Positions 3,700 through 37,660 of a stretch of 64,000 nucleotides of DNA are shown here, in pieces. A program made the translations under genes and the position numbers. Position 1 is the stretch's first letter. Every line of letters begins with the position of its first letter. This DNA is from Candidatus Altimarinota bacterium. Its GTDB lineage: Bacteria > Patescibacteriota > Gracilibacteria > 1-14-2-50-48-13. The notes below the pieces were generated by a model. That model was not told the DNA's origin. It saw only the letters and a list, made by a program, of their open reading frames with translations, and ran no database searches. The stretch spans positions 1,248,001-1,312,000 of the forward strand of contig JBKBWQ010000001.1 in the NCBI GenBank assembly GCA_046314355.1, in the 5' to 3' direction.

Positions 3700-3720
3700 G
3701 AAGGGGAGAGGGCACAGGCG

Positions 3721-3791
3721 CGTCATCCTGCAGGGTGATTCTTTATCTTCAGTCTCTACATTTAGAACTGTGGGAGGGGTCTCCAAACACA
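3721..3791. repeat. GTCAT-type REP-like hairpin, solo copy of the GIY-YIG element end
   Basis: Starts CGTCATCCTGCAG; 3763-3791 is the exact 29-bp reverse complement of 35235-35263. Confidence 0.9.
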
Positions 3792-3863
3792 GGCTTAGGA
3801 GTAACTATCACACGAGCCTTTTACTCCTTTTGAAAATTGAACTATAAAACTTAGACAAATAAC

Positions 3864-4496: not shown

Positions 4497-4521
4497 AAGT
4501 ATTCTTATAATTTTGAATGAT

Positions 4522-4581
4522 GGTTTCCGTTGGGCAGACTTCTTCGGCTTCGTTATAATCATCGAACGGAATGACAGGCTC
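4522..4581. repeat. GTCAT-type REP-like hairpin (minus orientation) ending in AGGCTC
   Basis: GGTTTCCGTT...AACGGAATGACA-GGCTC. Confidence 0.75.
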
Positions 4582-10906: not shown

Positions 10907-10987
10907 TCCTTTCTTTCGGAACCATAGCGGTTTACATATACAAAAATAAAAAGATCCTTTGTGTGGCTACAAGGGATTTTTTTATTG

Positions 10988-11069
10988 TGTCATTCCGGAC
11001 TTGATCCGGAATCTTCAAGGTTTAATAGACTCCAATGCTTTAAGATCCCGGGTTAAGCCCGGGATGACA
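10988..11069. repeat. GTCAT-type REPIN-like doublet
   Basis: TGTCATTCCGGACTTGATCCGGAATC...GATCCCGGGTTAAGCCCGGGATGACA: two inverted hairpins abutting the stop codon at 11070. Confidence 0.9.
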
Positions 11070-12491
11070 TTAGGAAGCATTCTCTCTTTTTAAAATAGTG
11101 AGCACTGTTTTAAGAATAACAATAATATCCTGTTTCATAGACCAGTTCTCAATATAGGAAAGCTCTACTTTGATCTCCTCTTCAAAACTAAGGGAAGATC
11201 GTCCGCTTACTTGGGCAAGTCCTGTAAGACCAGGCTTAACCGTAAGTACTCGTGAATAATGCTTGAATATTTTTTCTACCTCCGAAGGCATATGAGGTCG
11301 AGGTCCCACAAGGCTCATATCTCCCTTTAAAATATTCCAGAGCTGGGGAAGCTCATCTAGACTAGTCTTTCTAATAATCTTACCAACAGGAGTAACTCTA
11401 GGATCCTCTTTAATCTTTAAAAGTCCGCTGCGTTCACTCATACTCTCAAGAAGCTTCATATGCTCTTTTTCAGCCCCTTGTCTCATAGACTGAAACTTCA
11501 GACAGGTAAATGGTTCTCCATGAAGACCAACTCTCTTTTGTCTGAATAAGATTTGTTTAAAAGATTTCTGCTCAATCCATACTGCGATAGCAGTTCCAAG
11601 GATAAAAGGTGAAAGTAGAATGATGCCGAAGAAACTCCCCATAATATCCATGAAACGTTTCAGTACCCGCCCCCATCCGTCTAGCGGAGTGGGTTTGAGT
11701 TCGATGAGTGGAATTCCAAAATCATTATTTACGTCAATATTCAGCATTTGGACCTCCACTAGATCAGGTACAAAACGATACCGTACATGCATAATTCTGC
11801 AGAGTTCCATGACCGTATTGGCAGTACCTTCTTCTTCATTGCTGTTGGTCTGGATAATTTCATCAATATGATATTTCGTTATAGACTCCTCAAGGTCGTG
11901 TACAGTACCAAGTACTGGTAGTTTTGCTTGTTTTTCTGTAGATGCGGAAAGTACTCCTGCGATCTCGTAATGCCGTCCTTTTTTTAATTTTCTAGCAAGT
12001 TCTGCTGTGAGTTTATTATTTCCTATGAACAGTACTTTATATCTACCCACTCCGCTTCTCAAAAACATCTGTTGTACGATACGTACTAGGATACGTGCAG
12101 CAAAAATAAGAAGAGTAGCAAATATCCATCCATAGATCAGGATCAGACGTGAGAAGAAAAACTGTCTTGTGAGAAAGAATCCAACAATGACCAGCATGAC
12201 CCATGCTGTTGAAAGAAAAAGAACCTGTTTTAACTCTGATCCAAGTTTGTGAGAACTTTTGAGAGAATACATTCCATTGAAAGCGAATACCAAAGGTATT
12301 GTTGCTGCTCCTATAAATACATAATAGACAAGATAGAAATGATGATCGGGAAGCAGTCCAATATCGAGCTGAACACCTGGAATAAGATCTGTCTTTGCAC
12401 GGATAAGATACGCTGTATAAAATCCAATAGCAGCAGCCAGATAATCAAGTGGTACTTTTATAATACCGAAAAGTATTTCAGAACGTTTCAT
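11070..12491 (-). CDS. Undecaprenyl-phosphate sugar phosphotransferase (WcaJ/WbaP-like)
   Basis: N-terminal TMs; KRFMDI; KFQSMR; DPRVTPVGKIIRKTSLDELPQLWNILKGDMSLVGPRP. Likely start MKRSE at 12491. Confidence 0.93.
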   Translation of the reverse strand: MKRSEILFGIIKVPLDYLAAAIGFYTAYLIRAKTDLIPGVQLDIGLLPDHHFYLVYYVFIGAATIPLVFAFNGMYSLKSSHKLGSELKQVLFLSTAWVMLVIVGFFLTRQFFFSRLILIYGWIFATLLIFAARILVRIVQQMFLRSGVGRYKVLFIGNNKLTAELARKLKKGRHYEIAGVLSASTEKQAKLPVLGTVHDLEESITKYHIDEIIQTNSNEEEGTANTVMELCRIMHVRYRFVPDLVEVQMLNIDVNNDFGIPLIELKPTPLDGWGRVLKRFMDIMGSFFGIILLSPFILGTAIAVWIEQKSFKQILFRQKRVGLHGEPFTCLKFQSMRQGAEKEHMKLLESMSERSGLLKIKEDPRVTPVGKIIRKTSLDELPQLWNILKGDMSLVGPRPHMPSEVEKIFKHYSRVLTVKPGLTGLAQVSGRSSLSFEEEIKVELSYIENWSMKQDIIVILKTVLTILKRENAS

Positions 12492-12697: not shown

Positions 12698-13206
12698 AGT
12701 TGCCTCCCTTCTATAAGCCGAGTTCTGTACATATCTTACGACATGCGATGCGAATCTCTCTTGATCCGGATTTGCACCCGGATTCTAGCGGCTGTCTACC
12801 TTTCCTTCTCCGGAAAAAGAAACGGATTGAAGGAGGATAGCCATACAGCCTTGCAGCACACAGGGTTTGCCGGCACATCCCGATCACTCGGGAGGCAATA
12901 GTGTAGCTGATTGCTCAACACCACTATTCTTTTCACCTTTAGGAGTAAACTCCAAGTATCGTCTCTGTGGCACTTTCCCTAGTCTTCACCAAGACTACAA
13001 TTGCAAGCTTCTGGGCTTGCCAGTCGTAGCCTTGGCGAAGACTGGCGGACGTTATCCGCTGTGTTCTTTTCCATGCTGCCCGGACTTTCCCCAGTGAACC
13101 ACTCACTACGTTCAATCACACTACATCTGATAATATGAGAAAACCAGCTTGCAGTGTACCTGAGCGTAGCGAATGGTTCACTGTACGCATCCGAAGGGAA
13201 GCAGAC
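12698..13206 (-). ncRNA. rnpB: RNase P RNA (bacterial type A), unusually long (~505 nt)
   Basis: Minus strand carries GGAAAGTCCGGGC, GGAAAGTGCCACAG and ACAGAACTCGGCTTA. P1 GCTTCCCTTC/GAAGGGAGGC; P2 GATGCG/CGCATC. Confidence 0.93.
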
Positions 13207-21604: not shown

Positions 21605-21652
21605 TGTCATTCCCGTACTGATCTGCATCAGCATAAACTCCGGCGGGAATCC
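21605..21652. repeat. GTCAT-type REP-like hairpin
   Basis: TGTCATTCCCG...CGGGAATCC. Confidence 0.8.
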
Positions 21653-33690: not shown

Positions 33691-34709
33691 TGCCACTTGT
33701 TACGGTTGGATTTATTAATTATTCTAATCCAAGCATAGGATACTCCAGTAAAAAGTATCTTAAGCTTTTTCTTGAAACCCTCGCTGCACAAACGTATGAG
33801 AATCTTGAAGTTATATGTCTTGATAACGGTTCCACAGATAATGAAGAATCACTTCAAATGATCAAAGAGTTCTATCCTGGAATAAAAATTATTAGAAATA
33901 AAGAAAATACAGGGTTCATTGCACATAATCAGATTATCGCTGAAGGCAAAGGAAAGTATTACTTATGCATAAATTTTGACCTACTCCTAGATCCCCATTA
34001 TATCAAGAATTTGGTGGATTTTGCGGAAGCCCACCCTGATGTTGGAACATTTGGAGGAAGTATTTACCGCTGGGATTTTGCAAAGAATGTTAAGACTGAA
34101 TATTTAGATGCGACTGGTATTACTATTTCTCCATCTCATCATTTACGTGAACGTGAAACTGGAGTACATGTACCATTTGTTGAAATAGAAAAAAGAAATC
34201 CGGAAGAGGTATTTGGAATATCCGGCGTAAGTGTGATGTTCAATAAACAGGCACTTGAAGATATTTATTCTGTATACAACTATTACTTTGATCCGCTTTT
34301 TGTCATTTATAAAGAAGAAGTGGATCTCATGTACCGACTCAGATGGCTCGGATGGAAATCTTGGTATATTCCAAGTGCATTAGCATGGCATGATCGGACA
34401 TTGGGAGAAAAGCAAAAATTTAGATTGAGAAATCTTACAATTCTTACAAACCGTAAACATAAGAGTGAGTACAATAGGAGACAGTCTATCCGGAATCATC
34501 TTTGTATACTCTATAAAAACTTTTCTTTCTCCTTTTCTTTAAAGGTAAAAGTTCTGACATTTTGGGATGAGATCAGGAAATTCTTTTGGGTGCTACTTTT
34601 TGAGAGCTTTGCGTTAAGTGCTTATAAGGATTTTTGGAGAATGAGGAAAGAGTTGAAAGTGAGCAAGAAGAGTGTAGCGCCGGAAGAGATTGAGAAGTTA
34701 ATGATGTAA
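33687..34709 (+). CDS. Glycosyltransferase family 2
   Basis: CLDNGSTD; ENTGF; INFD; YKEEVDLMYR; AWH. Confidence 0.9.
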   Translation: MMPLVTVGFINYSNPSIGYSSKKYLKLFLETLAAQTYENLEVICLDNGSTDNEESLQMIKEFYPGIKIIRNKENTGFIAHNQIIAEGKGKYYLCINFDLLLDPHYIKNLVDFAEAHPDVGTFGGSIYRWDFAKNVKTEYLDATGITISPSHHLRERETGVHVPFVEIEKRNPEEVFGISGVSVMFNKQALEDIYSVYNYYFDPLFVIYKEEVDLMYRLRWLGWKSWYIPSALAWHDRTLGEKQKFRLRNLTILTNRKHKSEYNRRQSIRNHLCILYKNFSFSFSLKVKVLTFWDEIRKFFWVLLFESFALSAYKDFWRMRKELKVSKKSVAPEEIEKLMM

Positions 34710-34724
34710 TAGAACAAGAAGAAG

Positions 34725-35312
34725 CCTGGAGCCGTCATCCAGCAGAGTGTTAAAATAGGAACATAAAGTATCTTGAACTGCAGGAACCATCAAACTCAAG
34801 CCAGGTAGAAAGCATATGAGCTATTATTTAAACGTGTTTATAGAAAATATCTACAACTCTGTTATAAAAGGGTATTTTCCTGCTTAAAATTTAGTAAGCT
34901 TTAAAAAAGCTTACGGCTTACTTATGACATACGCCTATATCCTCGCATCTGAAAAAAACGGTACCCTTTACACAGGGGTAACTATAGATTTAGAAAGACG
35001 ACTTTGGGAACATAAACAAGAATCTAGTAAGGCTTTAAAAAAAAATACAGAATCTGGAGGCTCGTGTATTTTGAATATTATGAATCAATAGTTGATGCAA
35101 TTCATCGTGAAAAACAGATCAAAAACAAGAAGCGAGATTGGAAGAAGAGGCTTATTCTTTCTTTCAATCCTGAGTGGAAAGATTTGAGTGAAGCAATGGG
35201 CGCTTAAGCTCAGTTTTGTTGTTTCAGAATTTTTTGTGTTTGGAGACCCCTCCCACAGTTCTATTATTGAATCTAAAGTTTCTGTGTCACTCTGCAGGAT
35301 GACGGCTCTAGG
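34725..35312. mobile_element. Putative GIY-YIG cassette bounded by 25-bp terminal inverted repeats
   Basis: 34725-34749 CCTGGAGCCGTCATCCAGCAGAGTG versus reverse complement of 35288-35312 CCTAGAGCCGTCATCCTGCAGAGTG (23/25). Mobility is inferred. Confidence 0.6.
34924..35207 (+). pseudogene. Small GIY-YIG nuclease with a single frameshift
   Basis: Frame 0: MTYAYILASEKNGTLYTGVTIDLERRLWEHKQ. Frame -1: GFKKKYRIWRLVYFEYYESIVDAIHREKQIKNKKRDWKKRLILSFNPEWKDL. Shift lies near TTT-A9 at ~35030-35045. Confidence 0.9.
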
Positions 35313-35471
35313 ATTTATTCTGCAAATCTTAAAAAGGGATTAGGTTTCTTATATCTATATTGATACATGAAGCAAGATAATGAACTAATCGTTTCACGCA
35401 GATAATGGTACTGGGACTCTGTCACTAACAATATGGCCTATTCAAAAAGGTTTACTTACCAACTAAAGAAT

Positions 35472-35523
35472 TTACTCTCTTACTCTCTTACTCTCTTACT
35501 CTCTTACTCTCTTACTCTCTTAC
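35472..35523. repeat. (TTACTCTC)6 tandem repeat
   Basis: Six perfect octamers counted. Confidence 0.95.
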
Positions 35524-35593
35524 TTACTTCTTACACTAGACAAACCTCTTCTTTAGGATTATAACTCTCCACTATCATATAACTCATTTCTCT

Positions 35594-36328
35594 ATGGAAA
35601 CAGCGAGATCATATGTGGACGGATATGTAGGAAAAAAGATAGAAAGACTCTCCTCTGAAAAGGAGGAAGTAGCAAAGAAGCTTGCCTCTCTCGGGCTTGA
35701 GCATTTTCATAATGCGGTGGAGAAAATAGTAGATGATCAGGTGACAGAAGAGACGAAAAGACTAGAGAAAAATCAAAGAGGATTAGAGGAGCATTTGCAG
35801 AAGAATGGTATTAATAGAAAGCTAGAAGACACAGGGGTGTTTGAAGGGTCTAACACTGATGACGGAATGAGAGTCGTAGGTACTCATAATCATGCTACAG
35901 AAGAGACAGCTATCGATCAGAGAGAAATGGAAATGGCAGTAGAAAGTGGAGACTATACTAGAGTAAATCATATCTTAGCTCATGAGGAGACTCATGAAAA
36001 TTATCCAGGTCCAGATATATATCAGCAGGATCCTGAAATCCTTCAGAAAACTCTCATCGGTCTCTATGAAGGGTGGACTGAAGATAAAAATAGAGAAAAT
36101 TTAGGCACCGCTGTTCTGGAAGCATATGAGAAAGAGCGGGCATTGCTGAAAGAAACGGTGGAGAGAGCTGGCAATAAGGAGCATCTTGAAAAGGCATTGA
36201 AAGAAAAAGACTCCTTTGGAGCGCGTATTATTCTGCTTCACAGTCTGCAGCATACTCGTCCGGATCTGCTCGGAGGATACGATCCGACCTTTGAGTTTAT
36301 GCTCTATAAGAGTAAGAAAAATATATAG
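35594..36328 (+). CDS. Hypothetical protein with HExxH..E zinc-peptidase-like motif
   Basis: ILAHEETHE followed by LYEGWTE. Confidence 0.65.
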   Translation: METARSYVDGYVGKKIERLSSEKEEVAKKLASLGLEHFHNAVEKIVDDQVTEETKRLEKNQRGLEEHLQKNGINRKLEDTGVFEGSNTDDGMRVVGTHNHATEETAIDQREMEMAVESGDYTRVNHILAHEETHENYPGPDIYQQDPEILQKTLIGLYEGWTEDKNRENLGTAVLEAYEKERALLKETVERAGNKEHLEKALKEKDSFGARIILLHSLQHTRPDLLGGYDPTFEFMLYKSKKNI

Positions 36329-37093: not shown

Positions 37094-37660
37094 TTATGCA
37101 GTTACTTTTTCAAATGAATTACACTCATCGCATTTGTAAAATGCATTGTATGCTCTTCCAGTCTTCTTACTGATACCGGAAGGGACATATTTCATATATC
37201 CGTGAGTATCATCGAAGCTGCACATTTTGTGGTTCGGCAGGAAACTTGGAAGAGTGAGCTTTTCATTCTTTTCTACCTGCTCATCCTTCTCTGGATCATC
37301 ACCAGTAGGGATAAGGAATGAAGAAGTTAAGATATATTTAATGGCTCCTGTGATAGCCTTGTAGAGTGCTTTGTCGCCTTTATCTTCGCCAGATCCCATG
37401 AATTCTCCAGTAAGTTCTTCTCCTGACTCAAGATCGGTAAAGTAATATTTTACTTTTATGAGCAGAAGTGTGTCGTGTACCTGAGAGTCGATGACTTCTA
37501 GACGAAAGAGTATCTTTTGCGCTACAAGATGTTTATGGAGCGTTTCTTTTATAATTTTTTCTGAAGCATACTCATAATTGTGAAAATCATTTCTTTTGTC
37601 CTTTTCAATAAAAGGAACTGCTTTCATGATCGTATGCATCTTCGCGAGTAGATTTTTCAT
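37094..37660 (-). CDS. ERF-family ssDNA-annealing protein with C-terminal zinc-finger-like motif
   Basis: IEKDKRNDFHNYEYASE; GSGEDKGDKALYKAITGAIKYIL..LIPTGDDPE; C..H..GISKKTGRAY..FYKCDEC. Confidence 0.85.
   Translation of the reverse strand: MKNLLAKMHTIMKAVPFIEKDKRNDFHNYEYASEKIIKETLHKHLVAQKILFRLEVIDSQVHDTLLLIKVKYYFTDLESGEELTGEFMGSGEDKGDKALYKAITGAIKYILTSSFLIPTGDDPEKDEQVEKNEKLTLPSFLPNHKMCSFDDTHGYMKYVPSGISKKTGRAYNAFYKCDECNSFEKVTA

Follow-up and report, generated by a model that had tools for sequence, protein, structure and literature searches.

The interval from 34722 to 35315 of the window (the whole 64-kb stretch of DNA that was analyzed) is bounded by a 28-nt inverted repeat, the arms of which are 89% complementary and are separated by 538 nt. 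The left arm, at 34722-34749 (plus strand), includes 12 nt that lie outside the sequence GTCAT; the right arm is present at 35288-35315. When as many as 3 mismatches are allowed, a 21-nt core of the arms is found at only two places in the window, and 0 of 100 shuffles match it. The initial annotation of this DNA had reported 25-bp inverted repeats (23/25) flanking a gene, each repeat beginning a GTCAT-CC(T/A)GCAG...CTG(CA/TG)GGA hairpin. The hairpin is seen at both arms, and the repeats, as measured here, extend to 28 nt.

Within this element, two modules of ~75 nt, each starting with CGTCAT, face inward around a gene for a GIY-YIG nuclease. The architecture of a module includes a 9-bp closing stem (ATCCTGCAG...CTGCAGGAT), a 34-nt, partly conserved loop, and a CCAAAC-like tail. 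The left-end (LE) type module, at 34728-34804 on the plus strand, is recognized by nhmmer (E 1.3e-13), by an alignment (A3), and by pair counts; it has CGTCAT at 34733-34738, the closing stem TCCAGCAG...CTGCAGGA, and the tail AACCATCAAAC. The right-end (RE) type module, at 35226-35309 on the minus strand (nhmmer E 5.1e-17), has GTCAT at 35303-35299, a degenerate 3' stem half (CTGTGGGA, which includes two G-T wobbles), and an insertion of 6 nt that gives rise to GGGAGGGGTCTCC. This insertion is shared by three RE-type modules (window 3716-3796, window 35226-35309, and C1:848845-848926, where C1 denotes the contig), in which it creates a GGGAGGGGTCTCC mini-hairpin that replaces the 3' half of the closing stem. 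Two G-T wobbles in the 3' stem half are present in three RE-type copies, including the right end of the element. A terminator-like hairpin on the minus strand overlaps the outer edge of the left module. Besides the GIY-YIG gene, the element contains no open reading frame (ORF) of 30 aa or more with a Pfam match.

A prophage context was considered and rejected, since the neighbors with Pfam annotation are ordinary chromosomal genes apart from a lone gene for an ERF-superfamily single-strand annealing protein at 37094-37660 (minus strand; PF04404, E 4.8e-14), ~1.8 kb from the element; this gene could be a phage remnant. Two neighboring ORFs are without a Pfam match. About 160 nt downstream of the element, at 35464-35535, there is a microsatellite with an 8-nt unit, TTACTCTC, which presents seven register-shifted copies of a 24-nt reference at a spacing of 8 nt. 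At the gathering threshold, the sole Rfam match in the window is a bacterial RNase P class A RNA at 12698-13138 (minus strand, 149 bits), and a search of 34650-35400 at E ≤ 1 returns nothing.

The nuclease gene and its frameshift

Positions 34924-35207 constitute a 94-codon GIY-YIG gene that is interrupted by one -1 frameshift. The first 36 codons, at 34924-35031 (plus strand), match PF01541 (E 1.7e-8), and they encode the tyrosine of the GIY motif (Tyr5), the tyrosine of the YIG motif (Tyr16), and Arg and His residues. The remaining 58 codons and the stop lie at 35031-35207 (plus strand) in the +2 frame, and are recognized by alignment with homologs and by a profile of Ssn homologs (A2), which gives this fragment 91 bits. 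The glutamate of a REKQ sequence, residue 63 of the read-through, sits on this C-terminal fragment. At the frameshift site (35029-35033, plus strand), base 35031 is common to codon 36 (frame 1) and codon 37 (frame 3), for a net change of -1. The gene appears as two ORFs in differing frames, 34924-35091 (55 aa) and 35064-35207 (47 aa), of which the second has no Pfam match of its own. PF01541 is the sole Pfam match, and the protein of 36 + 58 = 94 codons across the frameshift is thus single-domain. The GIY-YIG gene of ~95 codons described in the initial annotation is thereby confirmed.

The 36-aa and 58-aa pieces tile intact homologs of 95-101 aa with no gap and no overlap, and the C-terminal 58 aa are 58% identical to an intact 97-aa homolog of a relative, G012 (E 2.6e-16). 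Tyr5, Tyr16, and Glu63 fall in columns that are conserved among relatives, but they are encoded on two different reading frames. Other collections give no diagnostic match. A search of NCBIfam yields only a sub-threshold match to a group I intron endonuclease, and in PDB the only match, obtained with a relative's protein as query, is the UPF0213 protein BH0048 (1zg2), at a weak E value of 0.0089. UPF0213 and the homing endonucleases of the I-TevI type have a GIY-YIG catalytic core in common with the protein here. However, homing enzymes have a separate DNA-binding domain and cut double-stranded (ds) DNA at intron-less alleles, whereas this locus is without such a domain or an intron. Among the best 80 metagenome loci, identity across the C-terminal 58 aa does not exceed 64%, and no intact near-copy with the same CCTGCAG modules is present.

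A perfect 9-bp palindrome, GTAAGCTTT...AAAGCTTAC, is located at 34894-34914, 10 nt upstream of the start codon. It gives a terminator-like match on the minus strand and is possibly an operator or a terminator.

The gene might nonetheless be intact or expressed, if the frameshift arose from faulty assembly, belonged to a minority allele, or were bypassed by programmed ribosomal frameshifting. The damage consists of a single lesion, neither fragment contains an in-frame stop, and the junction loses no residue, as such a reading would have it. However, a contig built separately from a public sequencing run (X1, labelled as a hot springs metagenome) has 0 differences from this DNA over 34300-35501, at a depth of 16.8; since that contig is identical, the frameshift is not the artefact of one assembler. 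X1 is possibly the source sample, so its contig does not represent independent DNA, and contigs hide minority variants. In addition, no slippery heptamer is visible by eye at 35025-35035. An intact or expressed gene is therefore considered improbable, and the gene is treated below as inactive. The X1 contig breaks inside the microsatellite at 35464-35535.

Hairpin modules across the genome

A nhmmer profile finds nine clear members of the long-loop module family in the 1.69-Mb genome (E 6e-11 to 2e-19; the next match has an E value of 3e-4), and CGTCAT opens all nine. These members are the two ends of the element, a gene-less inward pair at C1:794089-794300, and five solo copies. The gene-less pair is ~205 nt long and contains one LE-type and one RE-type module, which face inward as in the cassette; an AACCAT tail is common to one of its arms and to the left end of the element. 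A (TAAG)n run, C1:794300-794330, abuts this pair. The remaining modules, including every solo copy, are of the RE type. One solo RE-type module, a GGGAGGGGTCTCC variant, lies in the window at 3716-3796 (plus strand; blastn 80% over 71 nt, nhmmer E 2.5e-18) and has a run of 29 nt that is identical to the right end. The initial annotation had placed this solo copy, with the 29-nt identity, at 3721-3791. Sequence similarity that continues for ~40 nt past the module was judged too weak to indicate that solo modules carry remnants of the gene. Immediately outside GTCAT, the 5 nt are GAGCC in four of the nine modules and end in GCGC in four of the nine.

Three sister modules, at C1:27607, at C1:972059, and in the window at 4581-4515 (minus strand), have a related loop and an alternative self-complementary stem, CCGTT/AACGG. 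The sister module in the window (4515-4581), identified by alignment and pair counts, has the compensating stem TTCCGTT...AACGGAA and an LE-type tail. In the alignment of 12 sequences, 88.9% of the 108 closing-stem cells are paired, versus 30-51% after a slide of 1-3 columns. Four of the nine stem pairs vary on both sides (11 cells), and none of 500 shuffles attains the covariation score of the real alignment; this covariation rests on few events, with the double changes coming mostly from the one three-member sister class. The predicted ssDNA folds of the nine modules are not clearly more stable than those of mononucleotide shuffles (z from -2.3 to +0.05).

Other hairpins are of a short, canonical GTCAT type, with an 8-bp stem and a loop of 4-5 nt. 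A covariance model (R1), built from 18 short hairpins that came from the flanks of relatives' homologs and, in two cases, from the window, gives 17 matches in the genome. Ten short hairpins found by a hairpin scan are arranged as five inward doublets, 26-106 nt in length. One of these, a gene-less 80-nt doublet within 10986-11071, has arms at 10989-11012 and 11068-11045, and corresponds to the R1 matches C1:1258986-1259017 (plus strand) and C1:1259040-1259071 (minus strand). Two doublets of 106 nt, C1:1402664-1402769 and C1:1496935-1497040, share a conserved central third hairpin, AGAGTCGC...GCGACTCT, and compensating changes distinguish their terminal stems; the two resemble members of a small MITE-like family. 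A further GTCAT-anchored hairpin, at 21606-21650 (plus strand), has a stem of 7 bp (ATTCCCG/CGGGAAT) around a loop of 28 nt. Related hairpins had initially been noted at 4522, 10988, and 21605. The first is the far end of the minus-strand sister module, whose GTCAT starts at 4575, the second is the inward short-hairpin pair, and the third is the hairpin with the 28-nt loop.

GTCAT-anchored perfect hairpins number 5 in the window, versus a mean of 1.0 (maximum 4) in 50 shuffles, and 55 on contig C1, versus 17-34 in 5 shuffles; thus, the enrichment in both is modest. Outside this genome, the 18-nt module motif was searched in one genome per species (596 Gb), where at least 117 stretches with a single match are found in unrelated taxa, approximately the number expected by chance.

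Relationship to Ssn nucleases and their repeats

A system that pairs a gene for an ssDNA nuclease, Ssn, with a hairpin repeat was described in 2025 (Chenal et al., Nat Commun 2025, PMC11893778). In the portions of that paper that are drawn on here, SsnA of N. meningitidis is described as a 94-aa single-domain GIY-YIG protein (cd10448), and its hairpin repeat in Neisseria (NTS) has the consensus CGTCATTCCCGCG...GCGGGAATC. The wider class of such hairpins is called "Ssn-related motifs" (SRM), and the SRMs described are 20-50 nt long. Binding of SsnA to the hairpin is confined to ssDNA, with cleavage a few nucleotides upstream, and the mutations Y6A, Y17A, and E64A abolish cutting. The mechanism of binding and cutting has been demonstrated for four Ssn enzymes; RNA is not bound. 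The identity of the loop is dispensable, and extensions of the loop are tolerated in vitro. An SRM is nearby for 71% of homologs and on both sides for 42%. In these portions, Ssn is shown to hydrolyze ssDNA and to modulate transformation, but not to transpose DNA. The NTS-ssnA-NTS arrangement is likened there to an insertion sequence (IS), to RAYT/REP, and to IS200/IS605-REP, the IS analogy being offered as a hypothesis only. The terms "Patescibacteria" and "Peregrinibacteria" occur in none of the 13 supplementary files, of 14, that were searched (PMC11893778).

The locus described here resembles this system in several respects. The protein is a 94-aa, single-domain GIY-YIG protein, and the spacing of Tyr5, Tyr16, and Glu63 (11, 47) is identical to that of Y6, Y17, and E64 in SsnA, as judged from the residue numbers. 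The hairpin is anchored by CGTCAT and has an AT(C) closing end, inward copies are present on both sides of the gene, and pairs and solo copies are scattered in intergenic DNA. There are also differences. Each module here measures ~75 nt and has a loop of 34 nt that is conserved in part, and the left and right ends belong to distinct subtypes. There are ~30 copies here versus hundreds, the gene is frameshifted, and the host is from a class of small, CPR-like genomes. None of the nine modules (0/9) matches the published degenerate SRM string, since the loop is 34 nt rather than N0-5 and letters of the stem fall outside the string; across the genome the string has 4 matches, 3 of them convincing, versus 0-7 in 10 shuffles. 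Judged from these features of the sequence, the locus is very probably a decayed Ssn cassette, in which cognate, inward-facing SRM hairpins bracket a gene for a GIY-YIG ssDNA endonuclease.

By analogy with the four Ssn enzymes for which it was shown, the strand that reads 5'-CGTCAT-stem...stem'-AT(C) would fold when the DNA is single-stranded. A monomeric enzyme would then bind the hairpin, in a manner dependent on both sequence and structure, and would hydrolyze the strand a few nucleotides 5' of the motif, leaving dsDNA, RNA, and the complementary strand uncut. Because the two modules face inward, cuts are predicted just outside both ends of the cassette, one per strand. The -1 frameshift after codon 36 separates the two catalytic tyrosines from the metal-binding glutamate; therefore, no active enzyme is expected from this locus.

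The association of gene and hairpins extends beyond this genome. With the 58-aa C-terminal fragment as query, homologs are found in 22 of 40 relatives (genomes of 0.7-2.0 Mb from the same class), often several per genome. Inward hairpins are present on both sides at 15 of the 35 relatives' loci, on one side at 7, and on neither side at 13; these loci were assessed in two batches in which detection differed, the second having been scored by a hairpin script that misses extended types. The stems differ by locus (CCTGAA, CCCCGCG, TGCCCGA, CCCGAA, and others) but covary, whereas GTCAT and the closing AT are invariant. Long or extended modules accompany intact homologs at four loci (L023, L024, L016, and L010). 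Among the best 80 metagenome loci, the 63 that have 250 nt on both sides carry inward hairpins on both sides in 16 cases, on one side in 17, and on neither in 30; for outward-facing hairpins, used as a control, the counts are 2, 18, and 43. R1 matches are present in 16 of 22 Ssn-positive relatives versus 4 of 18 Ssn-negative ones (Fisher p 0.0036), although these relatives are not independent of each other. Without the 9 positives that supplied training sequences for R1, the comparison becomes 7/13 versus 4/18 (Fisher p 0.13). In a relative, G023, the Ssn ORF of two loci (L163 and L164, on contigs C42 and C127) runs into the right hairpin, so that the repeat supplies the codons for the last residues, DPELNSG, as well as the TGA stop. 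With a length of only 1568 nt, contig C127 comprises little more than the cassette.

These hairpins could instead be ordinary terminators, regulatory hairpins, or an RNA element, with a position around the nuclease gene that is incidental. The modules do lie near the ends of genes, and the terminator-like hairpin on the minus strand overlaps the outer edge of the left module. Yet the enrichment around homologs is specific for orientation (58 of 143 sides for inward hairpins versus 22 of 143 for outward ones, among the best 80 metagenome loci), and the 5' CGTCAT is conserved while the stems covary. Furthermore, Ssn enzymes cut at motifs of this kind, and RNA is not bound, according to the portions of the Ssn paper used here (PMC11893778). 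Nor do the hairpins match an Rfam family, a result that speaks only against a described RNA. An origin of the hairpins as ordinary terminators or RNA elements is thus very improbable. The core inference of the initial annotation, that the clade of this GIY-YIG enzyme and the GTCAT hairpin family are linked in function, holds, and the survey of co-occurrence that it had proposed gives the flanking on both sides at 15 of 35 relatives' loci. This tie is already anticipated by what is reported in PMC11893778. Since the pairing of gene and repeat was published in 2025, the locus represents a decayed, slightly unusual copy of a known system. What is particular here is minor: long-loop modules that the published pattern does not cover, left and right ends that are differentiated, and a gene that is dead.

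Profile A2 finds only this locus strongly (91 and 43 bits), and no second Ssn gene is detected with it in the genome, which is 98% complete. Two further small GIY-YIG remnants, which belong to another clade, reach just 28 and 24.5 bits. One, at C1:1106982-1107185 (minus strand), has an internal TAA and by eye adjoins an apparent tRNA, and the other, at C1:1415682-1415894 (plus strand), looks frameshifted; neither is flanked by GTCAT modules. Because the sole Ssn gene is dead and no second gene was found, the ~30 SRM-like hairpins (9 long ones with the CCTGCAG stem, 3 long ones with the CCGTT stem, and 17 short ones) appear to be orphaned relics of a decaying system.

Possible mobility of the cassette

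The arrangement had at first been compared to RAYT transposases and REPINs, the GIY-YIG enzyme being assigned the analogous role for its own repeats. REP repeats have a conserved 5' tetranucleotide, GTAG or GGAG. The likeness to RAYT/REP/REPIN/BIME systems lies in a small gene between inverted hairpin repeats that are recognized as ssDNA, in the gene-less inverted doublets and clusters elsewhere, and in a conserved 5' oligonucleotide that is followed by a variable palindrome. However, the protein here is a hydrolytic GIY-YIG nuclease, whereas a RAYT is a Y1 HUH transposase with a covalent intermediate, and the anchor is (C)GTCAT (CGTCAT in 9/9 modules) rather than GTAG. Membership in the RAYT/REPIN class is thus rejected, and the two systems are analogous only. 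IS200/IS605 elements and PATEs likewise have subterminal hairpins that are recognized in ssDNA, as well as non-autonomous, two-end derivatives. Their ends are in the same orientation, with both cuts on one strand, whereas the ends here are inverted, and no TnpA or TnpB is present. Consequently, membership in IS200/IS605 is also rejected; the modules are inverted, and apart from the GIY-YIG gene the element has no Pfam match among its ORFs of 30 aa or more.

An extension of the decayed-cassette reading is that the SRM-ssn-SRM cassette is, or at one time was, truly mobile and has distinct ends, that Ssn supplies the nicks for it, and that the doublets and solo ends are its non-autonomous derivatives, similar to REPINs or MITEs. 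Several observations are consistent with this. The gene-less, ~205-nt element at C1:794089-794300 has one LE and one RE end facing inward, five solo RE-type modules are present, and the short hairpins form five inward doublets of 26-106 nt, two of which, at 106 nt, share a central hairpin. Of nine sites examined, eight are located between ORFs of 100 aa or more, at a distance of 0-97 nt from the closest one, and the ninth, C1:973313-973390, overlaps a 112-aa ORF. Relative G023 has, on separate contigs, two cassettes with 75% identity across 434 nt, and their homology opens at the left GTCAT and stops shortly after the right ATGAC. Within the family the distribution is uneven, with R1 matches numbering 0 in G001, 0 in G002, 11 in G003, and 17 in this genome, and hairpins persist in 4 of 18 relatives that lack Ssn. 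The IS analogy, as noted, has been raised as a hypothesis in the portions of PMC11893778 considered here.

Other observations argue against mobility. GIY-YIG nucleases act by hydrolysis, without a covalent intermediate with the DNA, and thus strand transfer would need host functions; moreover, the inward modules give one predicted cut per strand. There is no target-site duplication, as the outside 5 nt, GAGCC or ...GCGC, are not repeated flanks. The module copies are only ~70-80% alike, so none is a recent copy. Two of three paralog pairs share homology only inside the coding region. Finally, no empty site was obtained from same-family genomes, metagenomes, or contigs of sequencing runs. In the same-family genomes, homologs of the neighboring GT2 gene are just 33-36% identical (G001 and G002), and the ORF at 35594 on the other side has no homolog in G001-G003; because these neighbors are diverged or absent, these genomes offer no orthologous site for comparison. 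A degenerate back-translation of the end of the GT2 gene gave 0 matches in a metagenome search. Among the sequencing runs, the stretch is found only in X1 and not in X3, and the contigs contain no joints and no variants; as contigs, these data could hide rare empty-site alleles.

To our knowledge, mobilization by Ssn has never been demonstrated. A literature search returned no paper on the mobility of prokaryotic Ssn systems other than PMC11893778. Of the role first proposed for the enzyme, then, the tie to the hairpins stands, being published in PMC11893778 and evident in the inward flanking of the gene. The RAYT-like mobilization lacks support in the form proposed, in that the activity shown in the portions of PMC11893778 used here is ssDNA hydrolysis, no empty site was found, and the gene is inactive. 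That the cassette is or was a mobile element is considered rather unlikely, as is Ssn-dependent mobility as such. It is slightly less likely that the cassette represents a transposable unit of an undescribed prokaryotic class, one that is driven by a hydrolytic GIY-YIG nuclease, has differentiated long-loop ends, and sheds gene-less doublets and solo ends.

As a decayed Ssn cassette, the locus extends the Ssn/SRM system of 2025 to a small-genome, CPR-like bacterium. It also reveals that natural hairpins with long, partly conserved loops escape the published search pattern; because the pattern misses them, surveys based on it undercount such sites. Each enzyme-hairpin pair of this kind is a candidate for a new specificity in ssDNA tools. 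The decay of the gene while hairpins survive, together with the hairpin-bounded homology in G023, bears on the mobility of the cassette. If the cassette were indeed a transposable unit, the doublets and solo ends that it shed would outlive the nuclease gene, and this genome would show the end state, a dead nuclease gene and its orphan hairpins.
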